The notes beneath the pieces were generated by a model that was given only the letters and a program-made list of their open reading frames with translations, made no database searches and was not told the DNA's origin. Positions 4,741-64,000 of a stretch of 64,000 nt of DNA are shown in pieces. Numbering within the stretch: position 1 is the first letter of the stretch; each line of letters begins with the position of its first letter. The position numbers and the translations under genes are program-made. Origin of the DNA: Candidatus Peregrinibacteria bacterium (GTDB taxonomy: Bacteria > Patescibacteriota > Gracilibacteria > UBA1369); contig OY970195.1 of assembly GCA_963708185.1 (NCBI GenBank), positions 1,056,001 through 1,120,000 on the forward strand. Direction: 5' to 3'.

Positions 4741-5348
4741 ATGAAAAAAACTTTTGCGATCATCGGTTTTATGGCTTTGAGCACGGTTTTTCTTGCCGGA
4801 TGCCAGCAGGCTGTTCCCCAAAACAACCAACAAAATTCACCCAACCAGACGCCGTCGCAATCGGCTTCCCTCAACTTCGCCGACGCAGGAAAGGTTTATG
4901 ATCCCTGCGAACTTCTGACCGAGCAGGATGTGAAAGCAGTTTTCCCCGATGGAACGATTAAAGTAACGAAGCACGATACCGAAGCCAATACCGTCGGTCA
5001 AAAAATCTGTTACTATTCGGCGTCGGACAGCGATGTGAAATTTGCCCAACTTTCGGTCATGAGTACGGCTGCGCTTTCGGATGCCATGCGCGCAAACGGG
5101 CAGAACGCCGAAGCGATGTATACGAATGAAAAATCTTTTATTGATAACATTACTCCGGTTCCCGGGATCGGTGATGACGCTTACTATGGCGGAAGCGGGC
5201 TCGCTCTTGGGAGCGGATTGCATGTTCTGGATAAGGCGAAACAGACGAAATTCACCGTTATGGTGGGGTCGGAACCGGAAATAGTGATCAACAACAACAC
5301 CTGGACATTGAAAAATCCATCTCCCAGAAAATTCTCAGCCGACTGTAA
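4741..5348 (+). CDS. Lipoprotein (DUF3558-like), interrupted by an apparent 1-nt frameshift near 5265
   Basis: Lipobox FLAGC, DPCELLT and VPGIGDDAY motifs. Adding one base at GGGG 5265-5268 gives a natural C-terminus ...GTGNSDQQQHLDIEKSISQKILSRL* ending at 5348. Confidence 0.7.
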
Positions 5349-50649: not shown

Positions 50650-51873
50650 TTAGACCTTTTTTAGGTTTTTGAGGTACTCGGCGAGAGCGGCGAGGGCATC
50701 CTTGAGTTCTTCAGGCTTGGCACCGAAGGACGCGCGCACGTAGCCGGGTTTGCCGAACGCCGATCCGGGGACCATAGCCACGTTGGCTTCTTCCAGAACG
50801 TGTTCGCAGAATTTGACGTCATCATAGAATTCGCGGTCAAAGGCGCGCAGCGGGACGAAGCTGTAGAACGCGGAGTGAGGCGCCTTCAGACCCGCTCCGG
50901 GAAAAAGATCGTTGAAGGTGTCGGTAAAAACATCTCGGCGGTGTTTCATTTCCTTGTTGATTTCCGGAGTGATTGTTGAGGCTTTATCCAGCGCAGCGAT
51001 GGCCGCCCACTGACTGATGATGCTGGTCCCCGTGATGCTCTGCCCCTGGATCTTGATGAGCGTTTTGGTGATCTCCTCCGGGGCGAAAACGAAGCCAACG
51101 CGCCAGCCGGTCATGCCGAAGTTCTTGGAACAGCTCTGGACGACGATAACGTGGTCCGCGTGATCCCAGAACGATCCGCAGGAAACGTATGTTTTGTTGT
51201 CGTACGTAAGACCGCTGTAGACCTCGTCGGACATGACGAAGATGTTTTTGTCGCGGCAGACATCAAGGATTTTTTTGAGCTCCTGTTCGGTGTAGAGCAC
51301 GCCCGTGGGATTGGACCCGTTATTGATGATGAGCATTTTGGTTTTGGCGGTGCAGGCCGCGGCGATTTGCTCGGGCCGGACCTTCCAGGCGTTTTCGCTT
51401 AAAACGCCATCCGCCCTTAGGGTTGAGGCGTCTTTTTCTTCGGTCTGGACGATAACCGGCCGTCCCCCAAAAAGCGAAACCATCGGCGGATAGGAAACCC
51501 AGTACGGCGCGATGACGATGACTTCGTCACCTTCGTTTAAAAGGGCCTGCAGCAGCAGATAGATGCCGAACTTGCCACCGCAGCTCACCAGGGTGTTTTT
51601 GATGGCGTAGTTAGTCTTATACAGCTCGTTCGTCCAGAGCGAGGCTTTATCGCGCAGCTCCTCGACGCCGGCGACCGGAGGATAGAGCGTACGACCCTGG
51701 TCTATGGCCAGGTCAACCTCCTGCTTCATGTAGTGCGCGGTGTTCATGATGGGTTCGCCAGCGGACAGGTTGAAAACGCGCTGGCCGGATTTCTTCTTTT
51801 CCTGGGCGATGGAATTGATCGTGACCGTCGCTGACGGCGGAATGTGGACCCGAGAGGAAAAAATGTCTTTCAT
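50650..51873 (-). CDS. Aspartate/aromatic (prephenate) aminotransferase, class I
   Basis: NLSAGEP, GGKFGIY, APYWVSY, SNPTG, SDEVY, SCSKNFGMTGWRVG and VPGSAFG motifs; last gene of the aro operon. Confidence 0.9.
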   Translation of the reverse strand: MKDIFSSRVHIPPSATVTINSIAQEKKKSGQRVFNLSAGEPIMNTAHYMKQEVDLAIDQGRTLYPPVAGVEELRDKASLWTNELYKTNYAIKNTLVSCGGKFGIYLLLQALLNEGDEVIVIAPYWVSYPPMVSLFGGRPVIVQTEEKDASTLRADGVLSENAWKVRPEQIAAACTAKTKMLIINNGSNPTGVLYTEQELKKILDVCRDKNIFVMSDEVYSGLTYDNKTYVSCGSFWDHADHVIVVQSCSKNFGMTGWRVGFVFAPEEITKTLIKIQGQSITGTSIISQWAAIAALDKASTITPEINKEMKHRRDVFTDTFNDLFPGAGLKAPHSAFYSFVPLRAFDREFYDDVKFCEHVLEEANVAMVPGSAFGKPGYVRASFGAKPEELKDALAALAEYLKNLKKV

Positions 51874-51915
51874 GAAGGTCTTGAAAAGTTCACGCACACT
51901 TTAGCATGGGTTTTG

Positions 51916-52209
51916 TTATTTTTGGATGCTTTTTGACTCTTCCATGACGAGGTCAAAAATTTTGCGAAGAGTTTTGTAGGTGATGCCATGTTTTTTGGCG
52001 AGCGCCTGGTGAAATTTTTTGAGTTCTTTTTCGCGTTTAGGGTCTTTTATTTTGATGTTTTCGCGTTTTTTTATGGTACCGATTTTTCGCGAAACGGCCA
52101 TGCGCAGCGCTACGCTTCGTATGATCGATGCGTCGAGCCGGTCTATGGCGGCGCGGAGTTCAATGATGTTTTTATCGGCCTGTTTTTGAGGTTTTTTTGA
52201 TGATGTCAT
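51916..52209 (-). CDS. Chorismate mutase (AroQ class)
   Basis: LRAAIDRLD...R..VSRKIG.IK...IKDPKRE...IF..VMEESK pattern. Confidence 0.9.
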   Translation of the reverse strand: MTSSKKPQKQADKNIIELRAAIDRLDASIIRSVALRMAVSRKIGTIKKRENIKIKDPKREKELKKFHQALAKKHGITYKTLRKIFDLVMEESKSIQK

Positions 52210-52954
52210 GATCAAGTTTTTGTAAGGATCTGAGAAAAATTTGGCGAGTTTTTTTTGTGTAAGGGTTGGCGCTTTGCATGTCGTAAAAAAGTTCCCATGT
52301 GTCGTTGTGAACCATCTCGTTCATGCGAAGCAGCGTCTGGTAATCCGGTGTTGAAATGGCTTGCGTATGCAATTTGATGTCGGCAAGAGCGCGACCGATG
52401 AAGTGTACGAGCGCCTGGGAGCGGGCCATCTGGCGGTCGTGCTGTTCAGGCGTGGCATGGATGATCTTGAGATGAAGTTCTTTGAGAATTTTTTCAAAAT
52501 TCCGGAGCTGGGTTTTACTTGAATGAACATCGCAGACAACTATTTTTTGGTTTTTGAGACCGAAACGTTTGACGGAATCGGGGCCGAACAGCGGATGGGT
52601 GGCAATGACCGGTTGTCCTTTGGGAAGCAGTTTTTCCATGGCCCTTACTGGTGCTGCTTTCACTGAGCAGGCGTCGATGACCACCGTTTCAGGAGGCAGA
52701 AGAGTAGCGATTTTTTTACAGATGTTGTCGATCCGGGAAATGGGAACGAGCAGAAAAACAAGATCGGATCTGGCGACTTCCGGGAGTGAAACAAATCGTA
52801 TTTTTTTTGAGGCAGACGAATTTCCGGATGAAATCTTATCAAAAACTTTTACCTCTCCGAGCGGTTTGAGGCAGCTCGCCCAGAGTTTTCCAAAACGTCC
52901 GTATCCGATGATGCCGAAGGTTGGTTTTGCCGATTTTGCGGCCCTTTTCTTCAT
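52172..52954 (-). CDS. tyrA: Prephenate/arogenate dehydrogenase
   Basis: GIIGYGRFG, DACSVK, THPLFGP and EQHDRQMARSQALVH motifs. Confidence 0.92.
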   Translation of the reverse strand: MKKRAAKSAKPTFGIIGYGRFGKLWASCLKPLGEVKVFDKISSGNSSASKKIRFVSLPEVARSDLVFLLVPISRIDNICKKIATLLPPETVVIDACSVKAAPVRAMEKLLPKGQPVIATHPLFGPDSVKRFGLKNQKIVVCDVHSSKTQLRNFEKILKELHLKIIHATPEQHDRQMARSQALVHFIGRALADIKLHTQAISTPDYQTLLRMNEMVHNDTWELFYDMQSANPYTKKTRQIFLRSLQKLDHDIIKKTSKTGR

Positions 52955-53598
52955 TTTGTGACAACGATAAAAGTGGTGAGATTGGGATGATTGTCCTGGA
53001 TGCCTTTAGCCAGAAGTTTGAGTTTATAGAGCTGCGCGGAACGCGCCGGGGCGATGACGGCGGTGTCTTTTTTAAGTACGCCTTTGGCCAGATCACGGGC
53101 GGCTTTGGCCGTATCTTCCCATTCAATGAGCTGTGCATTCGGGAATTCGCGGCGGATGTATCGTTCGCACTGGGAGATGGCCTGCGGGTGGGTGGCAATT
53201 TTTTTGATCTGTTTTTTGGTGATGCCGGGTTTGACCATGAGGCACTGGTAGACTTCGAACCAGAGTTCGCCGGTGTATTTAAAAAGATGGTTCCCCATGG
53301 CTTCAAACGCCGTTTGCACAAGACCGCCGCGCGAGTTCACCACGGGAAAAATGCCGATGTCGGCCTGCCTGCGGTCGAGAGCCTTGAGCACGCCTTCCAT
53401 GTCGATGGAAAAAACGATTTTCGGTTTGATGCCGTTGCGCTGGGCGTACAACAGGCCGGCTTCTTCGCTGAACGATCCGGCGTCGCCGGAGACGGCGATG
53501 CGGAGTTGTTGCCTGACGGTAGTTCCACGGGCTGGTCGCCGTGATTTTTTAGAGGTCTTCAAGGCGTGCAGTTTTGTTAAGTAATACGTGATCAACAA
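52951..53598 (-). CDS. pheA: Prephenate dehydratase (catalytic domain only, no ACT domain)
   Basis: GDAGSFSEEA, PVVNSRGG, THPQAISQC, DTAKAA and IQDNHPNLTTF motifs. The true start is probably downstream of 53598. Confidence 0.88.
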   Translation of the reverse strand: MLITYYLTKLHALKTSKKSRRPARGTTVRQQLRIAVSGDAGSFSEEAGLLYAQRNGIKPKIVFSIDMEGVLKALDRRQADIGIFPVVNSRGGLVQTAFEAMGNHLFKYTGELWFEVYQCLMVKPGITKKQIKKIATHPQAISQCERYIRREFPNAQLIEWEDTAKAARDLAKGVLKKDTAVIAPARSAQLYKLKLLAKGIQDNHPNLTTFIVVTK

Positions 53599-54709
53599 GG
53601 ACGAGGGCGACCATGGCTTCTCCGATGGGGACGGCGCGGGGGGCGACGCAGGGGTCGTGGCGACCGTGGACTTCGATGGTGGCTTTACGTCCTTTTGTGT
53701 CCACGGTTTGCTGTTTTTGGGCGATGCTGGAGGCGGGTTTCAACGCGAATCTAAGGATGATGGGCTCGCCGTTGCTGATGCCGCCGACCATGCCGCCGGC
53801 GCGGTTGGTTGCGGTGCCTATGCGTTTTGAACTGTGCGAGCCGCGCGAGGATTTGACGAGCGCGGCGGATTTTGCGATCCACCGGTCGTTGTTCTGCGAA
53901 GCGCGCCGGGAGGCGACGGCGAAGCCGTCGCCGATCTCGAATCCTTTAACCGCGGGAATACTCATGATGCCTTGGGCGAGGTCGGCGGAGAGCTTGTGAA
54001 AGACCGGTTCGCCGAGGCCCGGTGGAACATTTTGGGCGATGATTTCCACGACGCCGCCGATTGAATCGAGGTCTTTGCGTGCGGTTTCGACCTCTTTGAT
54101 CATGGCCTTGAGGACTTTTGGGTCCGGGCAGCGGAGAGGGTTGGATTCGATGAATTTTTGATCAAATGTTTTGGAACGACCGCCGCCGAGAGCTGCGTGA
54201 ATGGCTTCTGCGTTGGTGATTTTTACCGTGCCGATCTGCGTGATGTAGCCGAAAATTTTGACGCCGGATTTGGCGAGGATTTTTTTGGCGATCGCACCGG
54301 CTGCCACGCGGGCAATGGTTTCCCGCGCGCTGGCTCTGCCACCGCCGCGCCAGTCACGGAAACCGTACTTGGCGTCGCAGGTAAAGTCCGCGTGGCCTGG
54401 CCTGTAGAGTTCTTTTATTTTCTCGTACGGCTTGGAAATGTGGTCTTTGTTATGGACCAGAATCGCGATGGGGGTTCCCGTGGTTTTGCCTTCAAACGTG
54501 CCGGATAAAATTTCGGCTTCGTCTTTTTCCTGGCGCGTGGTGGTGAGGTGACTCGTCCCGGGCCGGCGGCGGTCAAGTTCTTGCTGGATGTCTTTTTCGC
54601 TCAGGGCGAGTCCCGCAGGGCAGCCGTCAATGACCACGCCAATGGCTTTGCCGTGCGATTCGCCGAAAGTGGTGATTTTGAAGAGTTGTCCGAAAGAGTT
54701 TCCAGGCAT
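53549..54709 (-). CDS. aroC: Chorismate synthase
   Basis: TFGESHG, RRRPG, RPGHAD, GGGRASARET, GGISNG and GRHDPC motifs. Confidence 0.97.
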   Translation of the reverse strand: MPGNSFGQLFKITTFGESHGKAIGVVIDGCPAGLALSEKDIQQELDRRRPGTSHLTTTRQEKDEAEILSGTFEGKTTGTPIAILVHNKDHISKPYEKIKELYRPGHADFTCDAKYGFRDWRGGGRASARETIARVAAGAIAKKILAKSGVKIFGYITQIGTVKITNAEAIHAALGGGRSKTFDQKFIESNPLRCPDPKVLKAMIKEVETARKDLDSIGGVVEIIAQNVPPGLGEPVFHKLSADLAQGIMSIPAVKGFEIGDGFAVASRRASQNNDRWIAKSAALVKSSRGSHSSKRIGTATNRAGGMVGGISNGEPIILRFALKPASSIAQKQQTVDTKGRKATIEVHGRHDPCVAPRAVPIGEAMVALVLVDHVLLNKTARLEDL

Positions 54710-54723
54710 AGTTCCCGCGGAGG

Positions 54724-55851
54724 TTAGTTAATAAAAAATTCCAAAGCTTTTTTGACGATTTTTTTATCGACAGGATGGCCGAACATGCCTTTAGCATCGG
54801 TTTTCACTTTTCCTATGCGCTCGAGCAAAACATATTTTACTTTGCCGCTGCCGGATTTTTTATCCATCAGTGTCAGCCTCAAAATATCTTCAATCTTAAA
54901 ATTGCAAAGGTCTTTTTCCTTAATACCGAACTGTTTCATGCTCTCACGCACGGTGCGGAAATCTTTTTCGCTCAATACGCCGAGCAGTTGCGCAATCTTG
55001 CTTTCCACGAGAATGCCGAGCGCCACACTGTAGCCGTGGAGAAACCTGTAGTTACTCAGATGTTCGACGGCGTGGCCGATGGTGTGTCCCCAGTTGACGA
55101 CCATGCGCTCGTTGGCTTCGTGCTCGTCACGGACAACGACGCCGATTTTGAGTTCGATTGAACGCGCGATGATTTTTTGGAGCAATGTTTGTTTTTTTGC
55201 GAGAATGTTTTTCCAGTTTTTTCTGGTGAATTCGAACGAGGGTTTGTCGTAGGTGAGAAAAATTTTCACGGACTCCATAAGGCCGTTGACGAGCTGTTCA
55301 CGGGGGAGTTTCTTGAGACAATCGGTATCGGCGATCACGGCTCTGGGATGCCAGAAAGCGCCGACGAGATTTTTGCCGTACGGCGTGTCGACGCCGACTT
55401 TTCCGCCGATGGAACTGTCGACCATGGCAAGAAAAGAGGTGGGAATTTGGATGTAAGGAATTCCGCGCATGTAGGTCGCCGCGACGTAGCCCGCGGTGTC
55501 ACCGACGACGCCACCGCCGAGGGCCAGGATCATGGTGTCGCGGCCGCATTTTTTGGCGAGCATGGCGTGGGTGAGTTTGCGGTGCGTGTCTTCGTTCTTG
55601 TACTTTTCACCGGAAGGAAAAGTGATGAGATCGGCACGCAAACCGGCTTCGTGAAAACTTTCCAGGAGTTTGTTTCCGAACAGTTTTTTCAGGGATGCCC
55701 CGGTGATAATGACGTACCTCGACGCCGGTTTGCCGTTGGAAAACTTGAAACGGCTCACGGTTTTCGGAAGATTTTTGAGCAATCCCGGCCCCACGAATAT
55801 GCGATAGTGCTGCGCTTCCGGGCGTGGCAACATGATGTCGAGTGTTTTCAT
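54724..55851 (-). CDS. aroB: 3-dehydroquinate synthase
   Basis: GGGVVGD.AGYVAATYMRG, MVDSSIGGK, KNLVGAF, NWGHTIGHA and HGYSVALG motifs. Start at MKTLDI (55851). Confidence 0.95.
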   Translation of the reverse strand: MKTLDIMLPRPEAQHYRIFVGPGLLKNLPKTVSRFKFSNGKPASRYVIITGASLKKLFGNKLLESFHEAGLRADLITFPSGEKYKNEDTHRKLTHAMLAKKCGRDTMILALGGGVVGDTAGYVAATYMRGIPYIQIPTSFLAMVDSSIGGKVGVDTPYGKNLVGAFWHPRAVIADTDCLKKLPREQLVNGLMESVKIFLTYDKPSFEFTRKNWKNILAKKQTLLQKIIARSIELKIGVVVRDEHEANERMVVNWGHTIGHAVEHLSNYRFLHGYSVALGILVESKIAQLLGVLSEKDFRTVRESMKQFGIKEKDLCNFKIEDILRLTLMDKKSGSGKVKYVLLERIGKVKTDAKGMFGHPVDKKIVKKALEFFIN

Positions 55852-56884
55852 GACTGTGAGGCTATGGTGTGTAAGAGTTCTTCGGTCTGTTCCCAACTCA
55901 GGCACGGATCGGTAATGGAAAGTCCCTCCTTGTCCACGGTTTCGGCGGTAAGCTTTTCGGCCTTCTGGCAACCGCTTTTGAGGAAACTTTCGAACATGAA
56001 TCCTTTGACGAGTTTGCGAAGATCGGGATACAGCTTGAGGGCGGCCATGACTTCCTGCGCCACGTTGATCTGCTGGATGGGATCTTTGACCCCGTCGATC
56101 TTGCAGTTGTCGTGGCTGGCGTCGATGACGATGGCGGGGTTGCTTACCGCGGCTTTTTCCAGGTATTTTTTGGCGATCATAATGTCTTCCACGTGGTAGT
56201 TGGGACGGTCCAGGCCGCCGCGCAGAACCAGATGCGCGTGGGGGTTGCCGTGGGTTTCGACCTGGGCGCCGTGGAACACGGCGGTGTGGCCGTGCTGCGC
56301 GGCGATGATGCTGTTGACGCCGATTTCGAGCGATCCACTCGTGGGGTTTTTCATGCCCACGGGGCATTCGACGGCGGAAGCAAAGATACGGTGTTCCTGA
56401 TCTTCGGTGCTGCGGGCGCCGATGGCCACCCAGGAGAGTAGTTCAATGAACCCTTTGGCGTTGTGGGTGAAGACCGCTTCGTCGGCGATGGGCAGGCCCA
56501 TTTCGATGACCTTCACCATCATGCTGCGTGCGTAGCGGATACCTTCCCCGATGTCCGGCGGCGCGAAGGGATCGGGCTGGTTCACGGGCCCGTCCAGCCT
56601 TTGCTCGTGCGGGGTTTCTGAATGTAGACGCGCATGATGATCTTGAGTTTGTCGTGCAGTTTCTCTTCAAGTTTTTTGAGTTTTTCCGCGTATTTGAGCG
56701 TAGCATCGTACGGCCAGGCGGAACACGGTCCGACGATGACGAGCATACGGTCATCTTTTCCGCCAAGGATGTCTTTGACCTCCTGCTTGTCGCGGGCGAC
56801 TTTTTCGTAGGCTGTATCGGAAAGCGGGAATGCCTGGATGATCTCTTCGGTACTGGGAAGCTGTTTGACGGTCGTAAGGTTCAT
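55848..56884 (-). CDS. aroF: DAHP synthase, class I-alpha, split by an apparent 1-nt frameshift near 56586
   Basis: IVGPCS and RVYIQKPRTSKGWTG in one frame; NQPD, AIGARSTE.Q.HR, GMKNPTSG, LRGG, IDASHDN, ESFL and SITDPCL in the next. Confidence 0.9.
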
Positions 56885-56919
56885 TTTTTAAGAAGAAGAA
56901 TGAAGTAAGAATATTGATT

Positions 56920-57750
56920 TTACGCAGGGAGGTCGATCATTGATATGAATTCCGGGGCGATTTTTTCATATAAAGGAGCTTTTCCGAGCCATAATTCAAC
57001 CTGGGCGAGCGCCTGGGCGATGAGCATGACGACTCCGGAAACCGTTTTGGCGCCGACGGCTTTTGCGTCTTTGAGCAGCTGCGTTTCGAGCGGATTATAA
57101 ATGAAATCGAAAACGGCCTGGTCTTTATGGAAAAGATTTTTCGGGAAGGGCGATTCGTCCGCGTGCGGTTCCATGCCCACCGGTGTCGCGTTGACGATAA
57201 CGTCGATTCTGGCTTCGTGCAGATCTTTTTCGCTGACCGATTTTCCGCCGAACTCTTTCATCAGTTCCTTCGCTTTTTGTTCTGTGCGGTTGTGACATAA
57301 AATGTTTGCTCCTTGTTTTTGCAGGAACCAGCACAATGGTCTGGCCGCACCTCCCGCTCCAAGAACGAGAACGTTTTTTGACGCCAACGGGACTCCTTCC
57401 AGCGCATGTTCGATACCGACGACGTCGGTATTATACCCGTAGAGTTTCCCGTTCAGACTCACAACCGTGTTCACCGCGCCGATTTTTTTCGCGGCGTCGT
57501 CGATGATGTCTATGTGCTTCATGACTTCCTGTTTATGGGGCAGGGTGACGGCAAGAAGATGGATAGGGAGCGTGCGCATTATGCCGATCATTTCGCCGAT
57601 ATTTTCCTGCTGAAACGCCAGCAGAACGGCGTTGACGTTCATGGTTTTGTAGATGAGTTCATGGATCTGCGGGCTCCAGGTATGCGCCAACGGGAAGCCT
57701 GTGACGGCGTTGAGCTTCGTTTGCGAGTTGAGGTGGAACTGTTTATCCAT
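56920..57750 (-). CDS. aroE: Shikimate dehydrogenase
   Basis: G.PLAHTWSP..H, VTLPHK, GAVNT, NTD, GAGGAAR, NATPVG and YNPLET motifs. Confidence 0.95.
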   Translation of the reverse strand: MDKQFHLNSQTKLNAVTGFPLAHTWSPQIHELIYKTMNVNAVLLAFQQENIGEMIGIMRTLPIHLLAVTLPHKQEVMKHIDIIDDAAKKIGAVNTVVSLNGKLYGYNTDVVGIEHALEGVPLASKNVLVLGAGGAARPLCWFLQKQGANILCHNRTEQKAKELMKEFGGKSVSEKDLHEARIDVIVNATPVGMEPHADESPFPKNLFHKDQAVFDFIYNPLETQLLKDAKAVGAKTVSGVVMLIAQALAQVELWLGKAPLYEKIAPEFISMIDLPA

Positions 57751-57756
57751 GGCTTG

Positions 57757-58227
57757 TTAACGGGATTTACGTGGTTTGCGTGATTTAGGCGCCGGTGCGA
57801 TTTTTTTGGAAAGAATTTTCAGCGCTTCGAGATAGCCTTTTTCTTTTTTCCCCGCGATCTGGGCGACGCACGCCGGCGCGGTGACTGAGGTTTTGCGCCA
57901 TTGTTCGCGTTTGTTGATGTTGGAAAGATGGACTTCCACCGCTGGAATTTCAGCGTCCAGGATGGCGTCGTGGATGGCGAAACTGTAATGGGTGAAAGCG
58001 CCGGGATTGATAATCATTCCTGCGGCTTTCGGCGCATTCTGCTGTATAAAATCGATGATCTCACCTTCGTGGTTGGACTGGAACGTTTTGACGGTGAACC
58101 CGTACTTTTTCGCTTCGCCCGCAATGAGCGCTTCAAGATTTTTCAGGGTCAACGTTCCATAATGTTTTTCGGGACGGCGTCCGAGAAAATTGAGATTCGG
58201 GCCGTGGATGAGCAGTATGGTTTTCAT
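57757..58227 (-). CDS. aroQ: Type II 3-dehydroquinate dehydratase
   Basis: HGPNLNFLGRR, QSNHEG, INPGAFTHYS and EVHLSN motifs. Confidence 0.96.
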   Translation of the reverse strand: MKTILLIHGPNLNFLGRRPEKHYGTLTLKNLEALIAGEAKKYGFTVKTFQSNHEGEIIDFIQQNAPKAAGMIINPGAFTHYSFAIHDAILDAEIPAVEVHLSNINKREQWRKTSVTAPACVAQIAGKKEKGYLEALKILSKKIAPAPKSRKPRKSR

Positions 58228-58745
58228 GGTAATTTCTTAAGGATTTCGTTGACGGCTTCATCGACCGATCCCGTATTTTCCACGCTGATATTCGCAAGGT
58301 TTTTGAAAATCGGCTCTCGCTCCTTCCACAGCTTCTTGAAGCTGGTGATCGGCTCTTCGTCCTTCGGGAAAAATGCCGGCTTTCCGTTGATCATTATCCG
58401 TTCAAAAACGATACTCTTGGGCGCGGAAATTTCAATCACGAGATGCCGTTTTATCAACGCCCGGTTCTGTTCCGACATGGGAGTTCCTCCGCCAACCGCC
58501 AAAACCATCGGGCTGTCGGACGCGGTGATTGCGGAAAGTACGCTCGCTTCAAGTTCGCGGAAATATTTTTCCCCGTGCCGTTCCATAATACCGCGGCAGG
58601 AAAGTTTTTCTCCCTTTTGTGTTTCATGCACTTCGACGATGTTGTCGTCGAGATCCACGAAGGCCATTCCCAGGGCTTTCGCCAGGCCTTTTCCGATCGT
58701 TGATTTTCCTGAGTTTTTGAATCCTATAAGGACGATGTGTTGCAT
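58224..58745 (-). CDS. aroK: Shikimate kinase
   Basis: LIGFKNSGKSTIG, FVDLD, GEKYFRELE and AVGGG motifs. Confidence 0.92.
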   Translation of the reverse strand: MQHIVLIGFKNSGKSTIGKGLAKALGMAFVDLDDNIVEVHETQKGEKLSCRGIMERHGEKYFRELEASVLSAITASDSPMVLAVGGGTPMSEQNRALIKRHLVIEISAPKSIVFERIMINGKPAFFPKDEEPITSFKKLWKEREPIFKNLANISVENTGSVDEAVNEILKKLP

Positions 58746-58754
58746 AAATATTTT

Positions 58755-60065
58755 TTAAACTTTGATTTCCATATTCGCGCCGATTTTGTTCATGTCATCG
58801 ACGAAGTCCGGGAAGGTCTTATTGATGCCCTCCGCGGTGTCGATTGTCGAGTCTCCGTCGGCAAGCAGTCCCGCGACGGCAAGCGCCATGATGGTGCGGT
58901 GGTCGTTGTAACCGTGGAGATCGGCACCTTTGAGTTTGCTTTGATAAATGGTGAGCGAATCTTCTTTTTCTTCGAGTTTCACGCCCATTTTCTTAAGTTC
59001 CGTTGCCATGGATTTGATGCGGTCCGTCTCCTTGATACGCGCGTTTTCAACGTTCATGAGAACGGTTTTCCCTTCCGCCTGTGTGGCGACCACGGCAAGG
59101 GTGGGAAGCATGTCGGGGATGTCGCCACAGTTGATGGTTGCTCCTTTGAGAGGCTTGTCGCCTTTCACGATAAGGTCGGTGCCTTTTACGGTGATGTCAG
59201 CTCCCATCTGCTGCAGAAGGGCAATGATCTGTTTGTCTCCCTGGGGATCGTCCATATCCAGCCCGTGAAGCGTAATATGACCGGGCAGCAAAATTCCCGC
59301 GGCGATGAGATATGAAGCCGAAGAAAAATCTCCGGGAATGATTTTATCAACCGGGTGGTACTGTTGGTTCCCGAAAATCCTGAAGGTATCCACCCCGTCT
59401 TTTTTGCTGTGCCCGTAGCGGATTTTCTGTTCGTCGAGCCAGGCCAGGGTCATGTCGACGTACGGACGTTCGTGGAGGTCTTTCACTTCGATTTCCGAAT
59501 TTTTTTTGGCACATGGGAGGCTTAGCAGCAGCGCAGAAAGATATTGCGAGTTTGTCCCGTCAACCGTTGCGTAGCCTCCCGCAAGTTCACCTCTTAACCC
59601 AAGTGGACAACTATCGTTGTTGTCATATGATACGACTTCCATCCCCAGATCTTTGACCGCCTGGATGATGCTGGCGAGCGGTCTTTTTTGCATCTGTTCC
59701 CCGCTGGCGAGGGTCAACAGGACCTCGGGATCTTGGCGAAGACCGATGAGCGGGATGGTCAACGTTGTGGTAATGCCGGAATTTGCGGAAAAAAGATCCG
59801 TTTCTGCTGTATCGAGCGGAACCCCTTCACTCTCCACGGTCACTTCAAGTCCGCCGGAACTGTTTTCGGTGTAATTGATGGTGGCGCCAAGCTTTCTGCA
59901 GACGTCAATGGCGGCGCGACCGTCCTCGGCATCCAGCAGATTATGCAAATGCGATGTCCCGCTCGCCATCGTCGCAATGAAAAGGGCTCGCACCGAGTGG
60001 GATTTCGAGCTTGGAGTCAGCGCTTCTCCGTGAAGTTCTTTCACGGGGTGGATGATGATTTTCAT
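58755..60065 (-). CDS. aroA: EPSP synthase
   Basis: PSSKSHSVRA, NSGITT, SQYLSALL, PYVDMT, PGDFSSA, QGD, RIKETDRI, DHR and KTFPDF motifs. Confidence 0.96.
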   Translation of the reverse strand: MKIIIHPVKELHGEALTPSSKSHSVRALFIATMASGTSHLHNLLDAEDGRAAIDVCRKLGATINYTENSSGGLEVTVESEGVPLDTAETDLFSANSGITTTLTIPLIGLRQDPEVLLTLASGEQMQKRPLASIIQAVKDLGMEVVSYDNNDSCPLGLRGELAGGYATVDGTNSQYLSALLLSLPCAKKNSEIEVKDLHERPYVDMTLAWLDEQKIRYGHSKKDGVDTFRIFGNQQYHPVDKIIPGDFSSASYLIAAGILLPGHITLHGLDMDDPQGDKQIIALLQQMGADITVKGTDLIVKGDKPLKGATINCGDIPDMLPTLAVVATQAEGKTVLMNVENARIKETDRIKSMATELKKMGVKLEEKEDSLTIYQSKLKGADLHGYNDHRTIMALAVAGLLADGDSTIDTAEGINKTFPDFVDDMNKIGANMEIKV

Positions 60066-60075
60066 GGTTGGTAAG

Positions 60076-60156
60076 AAAAAAATAAAAAAGCCTTCTCCTG
60101 AAGGCTGCGAGAGGTTCCAAAACGGTCACATGCTCTACGCCTTCAGGTGTCTGAAG
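60076..60156 (-). promoter_or_regulatory. Transcription attenuator (protector 1:2, antiterminator 2:3, terminator 3:4)
   Basis: On the mRNA: CTTCAG-ACAC-CTGAAG (60141-60156); CCTGAAGGC pairing with GCCTTCAGG (60139-60147 with 60097-60105); AGCCTTC-AGGA-GAAGGCT plus U-tract (60106 down to 60076). Confidence 0.88.
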
Positions 60157-60200
60157 TTGTAAAAGAAGAAGTAACCGAAAGTTTTGGAAAGATTGTTCAT
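60135..60200 (-). CDS. Phe/Tyr-rich attenuator leader peptide MNNLSKTFGYFFFYNFRHLKA
   Basis: Manual translation: ATG AAC AAT CTT TCC AAA ACT TTC GGT TAC TTC TTC TTT TAC AAC TTC AGA CAC CTG AAG GCG TAG; 5 Phe and 2 Tyr within 9 codons. Confidence 0.88.
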   Translation of the reverse strand: MNNLSKTFGYFFFYNFRHLKA

Positions 60201-60209
60201 GACGGTTGA

Positions 60210-60239
60210 AGTATATGTCGGCGCAGGGAAAATTGTCAA
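60210..60239 (-). promoter_or_regulatory. Sigma70-type promoter of the aro operon
   Basis: TTGACA (60239-60234), 18-nt spacer, TATACT (60215-60210), about 10 nt upstream of the leader ATG. Confidence 0.7.
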
Positions 60240-60274
60240 TTTGCTTTTGTGTCCGTTGCCCGGTTCCACACAAC

Positions 60275-60302
60275 AAAAAAGCCCCCGCGAGCGGGGGCTT
60301 TT
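60275..60302 (-). terminator. Rho-independent terminator of the pilin gene
   Basis: AAAAAAGCCCCCGC-GA-GCGGGGGCTTTT hairpin. Confidence 0.85.
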
Positions 60303-60322
60303 GAACGTCTTGTCAAAATCTC

Positions 60323-60721
60323 TTAGCCTGTCGCTCCGCCTCCGCCTGCACCAAGAACGGTGTTGACGATAGCGAATGAAAGCAGGATCACGACGATACC
60401 GATAACGGCATACATGATGATCTTTTTTGCAGATTCGATCTTTTCCTGGTTACCTGCAGCGGTGACATAGAGGAAACCTCCGTAAATGATCATCACCACG
60501 GCAATCAAACCGAGGAAGGTGAGAAAGAAGTTTACAATGGTTAAAGCCAAAGAACGGAAACTTCCCTGACCGCCCGTGGCAGTGCTGATAGCTTGAGGGT
60601 TGTCTGTCGGGCTAATGAAGCCTTGTGCGTTCGCGGTAAGAACCGGAGCAAATGATGCCATCATGAGTGCCATGCTTGTAACAAAGCCGACGGCAATATG
60701 TTTGAGAGATTTTTTTGACAT
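60323..60721 (-). CDS. CPR-type pilin (TrbC/VirB2-like)
   Basis: Signal peptide, then IVNFFLTFLGLIAVVMIIYGGFLYVTAAGNQEKIESAKKIIMYAVIG. Confidence 0.88.
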   Translation of the reverse strand: MSKKSLKHIAVGFVTSMALMMASFAPVLTANAQGFISPTDNPQAISTATGGQGSFRSLALTIVNFFLTFLGLIAVVMIIYGGFLYVTAAGNQEKIESAKKIIMYAVIGIVVILLSFAIVNTVLGAGGGGATG

Positions 60722-60804
60722 AGATGTGGGGTTAGTTATTTGATTTTGTTTTCTCTTCCTTCTATTCTACCAAATTTTCCTTTAAAAAGCAACAGGGCGT
60801 GAGC

Positions 60805-61770
60805 TTAAATAAAGAGTCCCTGAGGCGAAACGAGCTGGACCTCACGTTCAAGCAGTACGCCGAAACGCTCTTTTACCTTTTCCTGAAGCCGTTTACTCAG
60901 CTCCAAAACATCTTTTTGGGTGCCGTTTCCGGTGTTCATGAGCCAGTTGGCGTGCTCTTTGGAGACCATGACGCCCCCGACCTGCATGCCTTTAGCCCCG
61001 ATCTGTTCCAGCAGGTGACCCGCCTTGGTTTCGGGCGGCTGGGGGTTCTTGTAGTCGGGGGTTACGGGATTTTTAAAGAAAGAGCCCGAGCATTTGCCTT
61101 TTGGCTGTTTGCTGATGCGGTTCTTAACAATGTCCATGGCCTCGTCCAGGGCCGTTTTGGCGGTCACGGGATCGGCCATTTTGAGGCGGAGCCAGACTTT
61201 CAGGACCGTTTCGCGGGTTTTTTTGATCCTCGACGAACGGTAGCTGAAGTCCATGTCCTTTTTGCCGGCTTCGAGCAGACTTTCCTCCTTGCTATATACC
61301 AACGCTTTTTCAAAGACATCCTTGAGTTCTATGCCAAACGCGCCGGCATTGCCGCGTACCGCCCCTCCTAATGTTCCGGGCAGGCCCATCATCTTTTCCA
61401 TGCCGGTCAGCTTGTTCTTGAGCGCGAACTGGATGACCTGGGAGAGCAGGAGTCCCGCATCCGCAGCCACAAGGGACTCTTCCCTGGAGTCCGGGAGGGC
61501 TTCAAGGGCGATGTTTTTCGCCTGGATGTGGATGACGAGCCCACGGTAGCCCTCATCGGCAAAAATGGTGTTGCTCCCTCCTCCAAGGACAAAAACTGGG
61601 ATTCCCAGCTTGCCGGCGGCTGTAATGAGCGGCTCAAAAGCGGCCGTATCGGTCAGTTTATAGAAAAGATCGGCCGGACCGCCGATGCCAAACGTCACCA
61701 AAGGCGCCAGGGGCTTGTTTTGTTCTATCCCCGGAAATTGCTGGATCAATTGTTGATAGTGTTCATTCAT
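60805..61770 (-). CDS. murB: UDP-N-acetylenolpyruvoylglucosamine reductase
   Basis: TFGIGGPA, LGGGSN, GLPGTLGGAVRGNAGAFG, FSYRSS, GSFFKNP, HANW and LEREV motifs. Confidence 0.95.
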   Translation of the reverse strand: MNEHYQQLIQQFPGIEQNKPLAPLVTFGIGGPADLFYKLTDTAAFEPLITAAGKLGIPVFVLGGGSNTIFADEGYRGLVIHIQAKNIALEALPDSREESLVAADAGLLLSQVIQFALKNKLTGMEKMMGLPGTLGGAVRGNAGAFGIELKDVFEKALVYSKEESLLEAGKKDMDFSYRSSRIKKTRETVLKVWLRLKMADPVTAKTALDEAMDIVKNRISKQPKGKCSGSFFKNPVTPDYKNPQPPETKAGHLLEQIGAKGMQVGGVMVSKEHANWLMNTGNGTQKDVLELSKRLQEKVKERFGVLLEREVQLVSPQGLFI

Positions 61771-61830
61771 GCTCGCAAAGCATACCACAGATTTCCTGCA
61801 CGGTGATCTGTTTCTCCGCCGCACGGCTCA

Positions 61831-61859
61831 TTGACACTGTGGGCTTCTTCCCATATTAT
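61831..61859 (+). promoter_or_regulatory. Sigma70-type promoter for the tRNA-Thr/tRNA-Tyr pair
   Basis: TTGACA, 17-nt spacer, TATTAT. Confidence 0.7.
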
Positions 61860-61887
61860 CTCTCTGCTTTTTTGTCATGGCGAACGC

Positions 61888-61963
61888 GCCACCTTAGCTC
61901 AGTTGGTAGAGCAATTGTTTTGTAAACAATGGGTCGTCGGTTCGAGTCCGACAGGTGGCTCCA
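61888..61963 (+). tRNA. tRNA-Thr(TGT)
   Basis: GCCACCT...AGGTGGC TCCA acceptor, anticodon arm ATTGT-TT-TGT-AA-ACAAT. Confidence 0.94.
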
Positions 61964-61979
61964 TTCGCACATGTTTTAC

Positions 61980-62065
61980 GGGCAGGTACTCAAGCGGCCA
62001 ACGAGGGCAGACTGTAAATCTGCTGGCTCACGCCTACGGGGGTTCGAATCCCTCCCTGCCCACCA
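61980..62065 (+). tRNA. tRNA-Tyr(GTA)
   Basis: GGGCAGG...CCTGCCC ACCA acceptor, anticodon arm GCAGA-CT-GTA-AA-TCTGC, long variable arm. Confidence 0.95.
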
Positions 62066-62149
62066 TGTTTTTATTATTTTACCCCAGATGACAATCTGGC
62101 CAAATTTACGTATAATTGTATTGTAAATAAATTTCAAAAACAAAATTTT

Positions 62150-63943
62150 ATGACTGACACCGTCAAATCCGGTATTGCGGCAGTAAAAGTACTGGAAGAG
62201 TGGGGAGTAAAGCATATTTTTGGTATTCCTGGCGGCTCAATTAATAGTCTCATGGATGCTCTTTTAGCCGAGAAAGACAATATCGGCTATATCCAGGTTC
62301 GGCATGAAGAAGTCGGAGCGATGGCTGCGAGTATGCATGCAAAGTTTACGGGACACCTTGGAGTTTGTTTCGGGAGCGCGGGACCGGGAGGCACGCATAT
62401 GATGAACGGACTATATGATGCGCGCGAAGACCATATGCCGGTACTTGCTCTTGTCGGACAATTCTCGACTGCGGGTATGAACATGGATGCTTTTCAGGAA
62501 ATGAACGAAAACCCGATTTATGCCGATGTCTCGGTGTACAACCGCACGGTAATGACCGCTGAGCAGTTGCCTCATGTGATTGATGAAGCAATCCGGCAGG
62601 CATACGCAAAAAAAGGAGTAGCGGTCGTGGAGTTGCCGGTGGATCTGGGCTGGAAAGACATTCCGGCAAGGAAATCTTACTCCAGCGCGGATGCTCATCG
62701 GCAATATCCACATCCTTCATTGAATGTGCCTGATCTTGAAGCTGCCGCAAAAATCCTTAACCAATCGGAAAAAACGATTATCTATGCAGGCATTGGAACC
62801 CGGGGTGCGGGTGCGGATGTTATAAAACTTTCACAAAAGATCAAGGCGCCGATCGCCGTGACTGCTATCAATTTTGATAGTTTCCCTCATGATTATGAAG
62901 CGTTGCTGGGTTCGGCAAACCGCGTTGCGACCAAGCCGGCGAATGAGGCGTTCCCAAATGCGGATACCGTGGTTTTTGTAGGAAACAATTATCCGTTCGC
63001 CGAAGTCACCAATATTTTTAAAAACGTTAAAAATTTCATTCAAATTGATATAAATATCGCGAACCTGGGGAAGAGGCATCATGATGATGTGGCAATTCTA
63101 GCCGATGCCGGCGATGCCATTCGGGAACTTACAAAAATGGTGGAGGAGAAAGCGGAAACTGCATGGTGGAGAGCAAACATCAACAATATTAAGAATTGGC
63201 GCGATTATGTGAAACATCTTGAAACAAAAACTTCGGGAGATTTGCAGCTGTATCAGGTTTATCATGCCATTAACGAGCATGCGGCACCCGACGCGATTTT
63301 CTCGATTGATGTGGGTGACGTTACCGAGACGTCGATCCGTCATCTGCATTTGAACCCGAAGCAAATGTGGCGTACGTCAAATCTCTTTGCGACCATGGGG
63401 GTCGGGCTTCCAGGAGCGATAACGGCAAAACTTGATTTTCCCGATCGCCAGGTGTGGGCGCTTTCCGGCGATGGCGCTTTCCAAATGGTCATGCAAGATC
63501 TGGCCACACAGGTCCAGTATAAACTTCCGATTGTAAATGTTGTTTTCGCAAATGCTCAATACGGTTTCATCAAAGATGAACAGGAAGATACGAACACCGG
63601 GTTTCTTGGAGTGGAGTTTATGGACGTAGATTACGCGAAAGTCGCCGAAGCAATGGGGGCGAAATCTTACACGGCGAGAAAAGTTGAGGATTTAAAGGAT
63701 ATTTTTGACCGGGCTGAAAATGACAGGAAAGCGGGCCATACTGTGCTGATAGATGTAAAGATATCAAAAGAAAGACCGATCCCCGTCGAGCATCTCATGC
63801 TGGATCCTGCAATTCATAAAGAAGTGGACATCAAAAATTTCAAATTACGCTTTGAGGCGGAAAATTTGAAACCATTCAGTGAATTCCTCGAGGCTGAGGG
63901 AATTAAGCCCGTTTATACATCGACTGATCTCGGAGGATTTTAG
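62150..63943 (+). CDS. spxB: Pyruvate oxidase (ThDP/FAD; SpxB/Pox type)
   Basis: GIPGGSINS, QVRHEEVGA, GSAGPGGTH, MDAFQEMNENP, FATMGVGLPG, GDGAF and YGFIKDEQE motifs, resembling lactic-acid-bacterial pyruvate oxidase. Confidence 0.9.
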   Translation: MTDTVKSGIAAVKVLEEWGVKHIFGIPGGSINSLMDALLAEKDNIGYIQVRHEEVGAMAASMHAKFTGHLGVCFGSAGPGGTHMMNGLYDAREDHMPVLALVGQFSTAGMNMDAFQEMNENPIYADVSVYNRTVMTAEQLPHVIDEAIRQAYAKKGVAVVELPVDLGWKDIPARKSYSSADAHRQYPHPSLNVPDLEAAAKILNQSEKTIIYAGIGTRGAGADVIKLSQKIKAPIAVTAINFDSFPHDYEALLGSANRVATKPANEAFPNADTVVFVGNNYPFAEVTNIFKNVKNFIQIDINIANLGKRHHDDVAILADAGDAIRELTKMVEEKAETAWWRANINNIKNWRDYVKHLETKTSGDLQLYQVYHAINEHAAPDAIFSIDVGDVTETSIRHLHLNPKQMWRTSNLFATMGVGLPGAITAKLDFPDRQVWALSGDGAFQMVMQDLATQVQYKLPIVNVVFANAQYGFIKDEQEDTNTGFLGVEFMDVDYAKVAEAMGAKSYTARKVEDLKDIFDRAENDRKAGHTVLIDVKISKERPIPVEHLMLDPAIHKEVDIKNFKLRFEAENLKPFSEFLEAEGIKPVYTSTDLGGF

Positions 63944-64000
63944 TTTGTTTTGAGTTTGATGAAACGGACCATCCACCAGACGAACGACCCCGCGAAAAAG

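Follow-up and report, generated by a model that had tools for sequence, protein, structure and literature searches.

A candidate phenylalanine/tyrosine leader-peptide attenuator in front of the aromatic amino acid operon of a Candidatus Peregrinibacteria bacterium and its relatives

The window analysed here is a stretch of 64,000 nt from contig OY970195.1 of an uncultured Candidatus Peregrinibacteria bacterium, and the element in question occupies positions 60066-60240 of its minus strand, immediately upstream of aroA and of the operon for phenylalanine and tyrosine synthesis that begins with this gene. Its sequence, its conservation and a folding model together argue that the element is very probably a ribosome-mediated (leader-peptide) transcription attenuator, which would couple the whole Phe/Tyr operon to charged tRNA-Phe and tRNA-Tyr. 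That the small open reading frame (sORF) within it is translated, that ribosomes stall there and that this stalling sets a regulatory output is what we infer from the sequence.

All parts of the element are read on the minus strand. It starts with a sigma-70-like promoter carrying 11 of 12 matches (TTGACA, 60239-60234; 18-nt spacer; TATACT, 60215-60210), the top promoter-like site on either strand in a scan of positions 51000-64000. Between this promoter and aroA, and on the same strand as both, lies an open reading frame (ORF) of 21 codons plus TAG (60200-60135) encoding MNNLSKTFGYFFFYNFRHLKA. Its ATG stands 9 nt past the end of the -10 hexamer and, judging by this promoter geometry, the mRNA is probably leaderless or carries a 5′ untranslated region (UTR) of 1-3 nt. 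Codons 8-16 (60179-60153) form the putative regulatory block F G Y F F F Y N F, with five Phe (TTC, TTC, TTC, TTT, TTC) and two Tyr codons (TAC, TAC), and 69 nt separate the stop codon from the aroA ATG at 60065. The original prediction, made from the letters of this DNA alone, had described a 21-residue frame with five Phe and two Tyr in nine codons, ending about 70 nt before aroA and made nearly leaderless by a TTGACA-18-TATACT promoter about 10 nt before its ATG; each of these features was recovered at its place.

Three helices can be drawn in the leader, which is about 115 nt long. Helix 1:2, a putative anti-antiterminator or pause hairpin, joins CTTCAG (60156-60151) to CTGAAG (60146-60141) across an ACAC loop, and the minimum-free-energy fold extends it with TTTTAC/GTAGAG and with outer stems 60189-60181/60123-60115 and 60176-60171/60129-60124. 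The candidate antiterminator 2:3 pairs CCTGAAGGC (60147-60139) with GCCTTCAGG (60105-60097) and, further on, AGAG (60136-60133) with CTCT (60113-60110). Helix 3:4 has the form of an intrinsic terminator, AGCCTTC, loop AGGA, GAAGGCT (60106-60089), a 7-bp stem with four G-C pairs and a 4-nt loop. TTTTTATTTTTTT follows directly 3′ of the hairpin, the U-tract runs to 60076, and the site (60106-60076) also appeared in the scan for terminator-like sites. Region 2 is made of the last sense codons and the stop codon of the sORF (CTG AAG GCG TAG), so a ribosome reaching the stop would cover it. The three hairpins had been announced as mutually exclusive. All three are present, but helices 1:2 and 3:4 are compatible and coexist in the terminated state, and only 2:3 excludes both of the others. 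The predicted fold of the leader (-37.5 kcal/mol, z = -4.0) was not equalled in stability by any of 200 shuffled sequences. The aromatic block also stands out: the 1.437-Mb genome has 20,589 sORFs that begin with ATG and are 8-45 codons long, and among them the leader sORF is the single one with at least seven F or Y in nine codons, while eight others have six.

We then turn to the relatives of this bacterium; below, G000 is the genome of the window, other G numbers are relatives and L numbers are loci. The aroA type of the window, defined at E <= 1e-90, is carried by 23 of 205 genomes of the order. Upstream of these genes we scanned for an ATG-started sORF of 10-30 codons with at least four F, Y or W per seven codons, at most 260 nt upstream of aroA. 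In 17 of the 23 genomes aroA is directly preceded by a leader sORF with a hairpin and a T-run after it: five of eight in family f1 (none next to aroA in G004, G010 and G023), four of four in family f15 and eight of eleven in family f6 (none in G040, G067 and G085). An evenly drawn phylum sample of 401 genomes held four with the aroA type, and the only new one, G492, belongs to another class; its leader (...NFWYFSF...) comes with a terminator and an antiterminator. Among metagenome contigs the core motif gave 36 exact matches, two of which are genuine leaders (L104 and L118), precisely the two with aroA on the contig, and one of them is dominated by Tyr (...TYGYYFYNFSY...). The other 34 matches, which have no aromatic sORF, terminator or aroA, were set aside as chance. 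Phe/Tyr-rich sORFs with stems, which the original prediction had proposed to look for upstream of aroA in related genomes, are in this way found in 17 of the 23 order genomes, in G492 and on two metagenome contigs. As a negative control, more distant aroA loci were searched with a looser rule (7-45 codons; ATG, GTG or TTG starts; the same aromatic criterion): none of 20 loci (L012-L031) had a candidate, and one of 41 (L036-L076) had a weak, TTG-started one (L049).

The element always adjoins aroA, whatever gene stands upstream. In G000 the upstream neighbour is a T4SS-pilin-family gene (60721-60323, minus strand; Pfam PF18895) with its own strong terminator at 60302-60277; in G034 and G023 it is a gyrB-like gene and in G058 a different one, the gyrB-like and G058 names being read from translated gene ends rather than from a family search. 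Because the upstream gene is separately terminated and its identity varies among relatives, we assign the element to aroA. The leader is lost at locus L006 of G004, where about 40 nt separate the pilin terminator from aroA. At locus L008 of G023 a terminator resembling the G034 attenuator terminator directly follows the gyrB-like gene, with neither promoter nor sORF.

Most of the 17 leaders share the start geometry of G000. A promoter with 9-11 of 12 matches precedes all 17, and a terminator follows in all 17. The distance from the end of the -10 hexamer to the ATG is 7-12 nt in 12 leaders and 21 nt in the other five. No convincing Shine-Dalgarno sequence was found before the 17 sORFs, the best being a four-of-five match within the -10 hexamer of G063. 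This geometry suggests that the leader peptide is likely translated from leaderless or near-leaderless mRNA, the 21-nt spacing of the five leaders implying, on the same sequence grounds, a short 5′ UTR devoid of a Shine-Dalgarno sequence.

In the mechanism that we propose, RNA polymerase would start at the promoter (60239-60210) and a ribosome would enter the leaderless or nearly leaderless 21-codon ORF. With ample Phe and Tyr, the ribosome would run to the TAG and cover region 2, leaving helix 3:4 and its U-tract to form and transcription to stop before aroA. Should no ribosome translate the sORF, helices 1:2 and 3:4 would both form and termination would again result. When Phe-tRNA or Tyr-tRNA is scarce, the ribosome would stall within F-G-Y-F-F-F-Y-N-F and cover region 1; region 2 would then be free to pair with region 3 as the antiterminator, and polymerase would read through from aroA to the aminotransferase gene at the end of the operon.

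This scheme was modelled by placing the A-site on each codon in turn, masking as ribosome footprint the stretch that extends from the first base of that codon 15 nt in the 5′ and 10 nt in the 3′ direction, and by taking as output the Boltzmann probability of the terminator helix in a transcript reaching the hairpin end. For G000 the predicted probability is 0.79 in free RNA, falls to 0.06 with F13 in the A-site, 0.002 with Y14 and 0.04 with N15, and is back at 0.79 once F16 or any later codon, the stop included, is reached. The antiterminator 2:3 forms with the footprint on F13, and full loss of the terminator is confined to stalls at F12/F13, Y14 and N15. The masked folding suggested in the original prediction gave a switch of the kind expected. 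Over the 17 leaders the modelled terminator probability is 0.47-0.98 with the ribosome at the stop and reaches a minimum of at most 0.13 on an aromatic codon, returning to high values within about 1-2 codons past the last aromatic one. When everything upstream of the terminator was shuffled with dinucleotides preserved, 31 of 1360 sequences reached the observed contrast (1 of 80 for G000). In the terms of this model, the switch is thermodynamically feasible.

Conservation of the helices was examined in an alignment (A2) of eight leader sequences from genera g1 and g39. RNAalifold, run on A2, arrives on its own at helix 1:2, its extension and the terminator. For helix 1:2 and the terminator, 95.3% of the alignment cells are paired, compared to 38-63% when the helices are slid, three pairs are changed on both sides and none of 500 shuffles reaches the covariation score. 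The terminator of G166 and G169 shows a compensatory U-A to C-G exchange (alignment columns 100/111). For the antiterminator 2:3, 90.4% of cells are paired, compared to 33-60% when slid. An antiterminator-only pair (columns 55/106) is C-G in G000 and G-C in G170, G166 and G169, and in G170 a change in region 2 (GTGAAGGC) is matched by one in region 3 (GCCTTCAC). Family f6 offers another pair confined to the antiterminator, with U-A in G063 replaced by C-G in G066 and G065.

Comparison between families gives a stronger structural argument than these pair counts within a group. In genus g1, regions 1/2/3/4 have the sequences CTTCAG/CTGAAGGC/GCCTTCAG/GAAGGC; in family f6 they are CTTCGC/GCGAGGC/GCCTCGC/GCGGGG. 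The three helices are made of different letters, but their positions with respect to the final aromatic codon and the stop are unchanged. When the eight g1/g39 leaders alone were used to build a covariance model, it recovered seven leaders of other genera or families at exactly the coordinates predicted for them independently.

The mix of Phe and Tyr codons is kept in 20 of 20 leaders (the 17 of the order, G492, L104 and L118), and Trp codons occur as well in eight of them (G034, G166, G169, G170, G171, G073, G065 and G492). Within the 17 genomes of the order, TrpA is found in four of seven whose leader carries Trp codons versus one of ten whose leader does not. Inside genus g50, G065 has both Trp codons and trpA and G063 has neither. 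The leader peptide of G169 is identical to that of G166, yet G169 gave no TrpA match; since there is this exception and since related genomes are not independent samples, the association between Trp codons and trpA is suggestive only.

Two further sORFs with tandem Trp codons were noticed upstream of trp operons, in G067 (L093, reverse complement 4861-4935, ...RKWWRL...) and in G084 (L095, 578-640, ...KSWWRR...); both have a promoter-like site before them and a hairpin and T-run after them. In G067 the trp genes run into aroA, without a separate Phe/Tyr leader. The masking model predicts a weak switch for the G067 sORF (0.28 to 0.05) and none for that of G084, and we regard both as candidates only. 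Within G000 itself, a scan of intergenic sORFs having at least four of one residue per seven codons and then a terminator (13 rows, representing 10 distinct sORFs) revealed no further attenuator, a rule that sORFs with two regulatory codons would escape. A Leu-rich sORF (974492) was rejected as it precedes a penicillin-binding-protein-like gene, and an Ile-rich one (922003) as it lies beside a bidirectional terminator.

Several observations weigh against an attenuator of the type proposed. Six of the 23 genomes with the aroA type, including G004 of the same genus, have no element next to aroA, which makes it dispensable. The original prediction held that stalling on either Phe or Tyr codons would induce read-through; in the model this held for F12/F13, Y14 and N15, was only partly borne out for F8-F11, where termination is incompletely relieved (0.50-0.61), and failed at F16, which gives no relief. 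For three of the 17 leaders (G034, G170 and G073), and for G492 too, the model predicts the antiterminated state when the RNA is not translated, so that in these four a translating ribosome would be needed for termination. The masking model is moreover an equilibrium one, and real attenuation is kinetic, with synchrony of polymerase and ribosome here assumed. Covariation of the antiterminator in A2 is weak, with both partners altered in two pairs and the score attained by 82 of 500 shuffles, because most columns are invariant within the closest group, as most helix positions are in general. The seven cross-family covariance-model matches have marginal E-values (0.005-0.12 in 124 kb), and three leaders (G079, G084 and G492) were missed. 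Finally, the alignment fitted to that model (A5, 17 rows) includes two weak, probably spurious rows; its figures (94.5% of cells paired versus 43-57% for slid helices, changes on both sides in 11 of 18 pairs, none of 500 shuffles reaching the score) are biased towards structure, as the alignment was fitted to the structure of the model.

Alternative helices of this kind would also fit a switch which does not involve translation but is set by an RNA-binding protein (TRAP- or PyrR-like), by uncharged tRNA or by a metabolite, the sORF being incidental. The want of a Shine-Dalgarno sequence before the sORF, and the antiterminated free RNA predicted for G034, G170, G073 and G492, point in the same direction. 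Yet the single constant of the 20 leaders is an ATG frame with its F/Y(/W) cluster ending just before region 2, while the letters of the helices diverge, and the modelled window of antitermination closes about 1-2 codons past the last aromatic codon. No riboswitch, T-box or leader family of Rfam was recognised, Phe_leader scores staying below threshold, and a leader of this length is too short for a T-box. We consider such a translation-independent switch improbable.

The frame itself might alternatively be what selection keeps, as an independent gene for a hydrophobic micropeptide with its own promoter and terminator; aroA would then depend on read-through or on a different promoter, and amino acids would not be sensed. 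Its conservation as an ORF, together with an N-terminal MNN and a C-terminal (L/V)KA that recur in g1 and g39, would agree with this. However, the N-terminal half varies freely, and the conserved C-terminal codons coincide with RNA region 2, covarying with regions 1 and 3; in other families QRG(L/F) precedes the stop in place of LKA. The 0-44 nt from the T-run to aroA hold no separate aroA promoter, and the element constantly adjoins aroA behind differing upstream genes; this explanation is very improbable. Least credible of all is a chance pairing of a T-rich sORF with an ordinary terminator without regulatory role. T-rich intergenic DNA does readily yield Phe-rich frames, such as a second F-rich sORF of G000 that also starts with MNN (1163367-1163408), which we rejected as a leader because it lies in a T-rich spacer at a gene end, and 34 of the 36 metagenome matches to the core motif were accidental, as told above. 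Against this stand the position of the leader sORF as the unique genome-wide F/Y maximum, the upkeep of the element across three families and another class, the shuffle controls and helix covariation, and the fact that aroA lies on the contigs of the two genuine metagenome matches and on no others. Chance is by these data already strongly disfavoured, and the leader-peptide attenuator is the reading that we retain.

The operon that the attenuator would control comprises 11 genes on the minus strand (50650-60065), identified by Pfam scans: aroA (60065-58755), aroK (58745-58224), type II aroQ (58227-57757), aroE (57750-56920), the 3-deoxy-D-arabino-heptulosonate 7-phosphate (DAHP) synthase gene (56884-55848), aroB (about 55850-54724), aroC (54709-53549), and genes for prephenate dehydratase (53598-52951), prephenate dehydrogenase (52954-52172), type II chorismate mutase (52215-51916) and a class I/II aminotransferase (51897-50650). 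They encode a complete route from phosphoenolpyruvate and erythrose 4-phosphate to Phe and Tyr, in agreement with the earlier proposal that the operon makes exactly these two amino acids: the common pathway is joined to prephenate dehydratase, prephenate dehydrogenase, chorismate mutase and aminotransferase, and the Pfam scans detected no trp genes among the 11. A search for TrpA (PF00290) in the 99%-complete genome gave nothing above its cut-off. Control of the whole operon from one leader, as had been proposed, is consistent with intergenic gaps of at most 35 nt or gene overlaps throughout and with one single terminator-like site, a weak one at 51110, on the operon strand of these 9.4 kb. 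The gene order is identical in G002, G170 and G063.

The DAHP synthase gene is split near 56585 by a 1-nt frameshift (frames 56884-56582 and 56585-55848), its orthologues in G002 and G170 being intact; the frameshift may have arisen in the assembly or may truly inactivate the enzyme with which the pathway starts. The 547-residue ORF listed for aroB (54724-56367, minus) overlaps the C-terminal frame of the DAHP synthase. Its dehydroquinate synthase domains begin only at about residue 190-248, and the true aroB start probably lies near 55850. In a sample of 60 relatives many genomes carry another aroA, 31-37% identical, and the nearest aroA sequences outside the lineage, about 40% identical, come from metagenome-assembled genomes of Armatimonadia, Spirochaetes, Nitrospinota and Chlamydiae. 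The aromatic operon is patchy in the order and may have been acquired horizontally. On the plus strand of the window, genes for tRNA-Thr(TGT) and tRNA-Tyr(GTA) (61888-62065) lie between a murB-like gene and a gene for an acetolactate-synthase-like, thiamine pyrophosphate-dependent enzyme (62150-63943), the latter preceded by a promoter-like site (62088-62116). This ilvB-like gene at 62150 was considered as another attenuator-controlled gene and rejected: it has no leader peptide, and two tRNA genes stand upstream.

More tentatively, we suggest that Peribacterales and at least one other class of the Candidate Phyla Radiation (CPR) may possess multivalent aromatic leader peptides, probably leaderless, that form a family specific to the lineage and would be the first case of ribosome-mediated attenuation to be recognised in the CPR; this wider proposal is plausible rather than probable. 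If true, it would mean that transcription-translation coupling operates in these minimal cells and that leader codons are tuned to the products of chorismate, with Phe and Tyr codons in every genome and Trp codons added by preference in genomes that have a Trp pathway. The regulation of genes in CPR/Patescibacteria has hardly been charted. Peribacteria are a class of Candidatus Peregrinibacteriota, which PMC4736985 places in the CPR. The same paper reports few amino acid biosynthesis genes in Ca. Peribacter riflensis, in contrast to which an attenuator of this kind would show that some reduced, presumably host-dependent bacteria make Phe and Tyr and adjust the pathway to the supply of charged tRNA. 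A term search of PMC4736985 returned no mention of regulation. Leader sORFs of this kind fall under gene-calling cut-offs and would be findable by a covariance model or by the rule of an aromatic-rich sORF and a terminator before aroA. The element should also be portable into E. coli or into the reconstituted PURE translation system for study of the behaviour of a CPR leader RNA.

Searches of Rfam place the leader outside the known families. The stretch 60066-60240 gave no match at E <= 10, T-box and riboswitch families included. On the loci of six relatives (E <= 1), Phe_leader reached 27.9 bits on the G034 leader only, and the other five gave nothing. Matches to Phe_leader (28 bits), Leu_leader, RNAI and other families at 60272-60376 (minus) fall on the pilin terminator and were discarded as terminator-driven chance. 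With a gathering threshold of 55 bits, the leader is not a member of Rfam RF01859 (Phe_leader). The likeness to the pheL/trpL/hisL architecture claimed in the original prediction stands without such membership, as all of its sequence-level features are present and are conserved in relatives. That prediction had also known of no ribosome-mediated attenuator in CPR bacteria, and we found no literature linking leader-peptide attenuation with CPR, Patescibacteria, Peregrinibacteria or Peribacteria in a search that left subscription journals mostly outside. Nor did the literature searched yield an earlier description of a mixed Phe/Tyr leader.

The nearest known counterparts are pheL-pheA and pheM-pheST of E. 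coli (RF01859), with which the leader shares a short ORF with a run of Phe codons, the 1:2/2:3/3:4 logic and a terminator directly before the first structural gene; pheL-pheA likewise concerns control of Phe biosynthesis. Regulatory codons in the Phe_leader systems are Phe alone, whereas here they are a mix of Phe and Tyr, with Trp in eight of 20 leaders. The controlled unit of pheL is pheA alone, whereas here it would be the common pathway and both terminal branches, 11 genes in all; unlike pheL, moreover, the leader has no Shine-Dalgarno sequence, probably a leaderless start, and a host in Peribacteria and the CPR. In E. coli, tyrA and aroF are under TyrR and not under an attenuator. Sensing of several amino acids through mixed codons in one leader is known from thrL (Thr and Ile) and ilvL (Ile, Leu and Val), and the codon mix of the leader described here is multivalent in the same manner. 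The mechanism proposed for the G000 leader is that of trpL of E. coli. The ribosome-dependent termination predicted for G034, G170, G073 and G492 is a variation on the trpL scheme: in contrast to trpL superattenuation, their untranslated RNA is predicted to read through.

As far as the available parts of these papers go, pheL genes occur for the most part in gamma-proteobacteria, Bacteroides and Desulfobacterium contributing a few candidates (PMC3082878), PMC1183508 treats the role of the number of regulatory codons, and descriptions of leader-peptide attenuators come from Proteobacteria, Actinobacteria, some Firmicutes and Deinococcus (PMC2965389, PMC1262725, PMC4007540). Those of Actinobacteria and Firmicutes (trp, leu, ilv, cys, hisS), found by comparative genomics (PMC1262725, PMC2965389), are of the classical type and lie outside Proteobacteria, as does the leader described here. 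Within its accessible portion, PMC1262725 presents none for Phe or Tyr operons of Actinobacteria and cites Tyr genes of low-GC Gram-positives as being under T-boxes. Deinococcus deserti is described in the accessible text of PMC4007540 as having 14 predicted leader peptides in front of tRNA synthetase and amino acid biosynthesis genes, their mRNA starting with the AUG itself or 1 nt ahead of it, and mycobacteria, in what is available of bioRxiv 10.1101/834739, as having polycysteine leaderless sORFs that act as Cys-responsive attenuators. Promoter geometry suggests a comparable start for 12 of the 17 leaders studied here, while phylum, amino acids and target operons differ. Set beside all these systems, the mechanism is a textbook one; what is new is its CPR lineage, its independent RNA family, its multivalent Phe/Tyr(/Trp) block, its probably leaderless start and its proposed control of a whole pathway of 11 genes.

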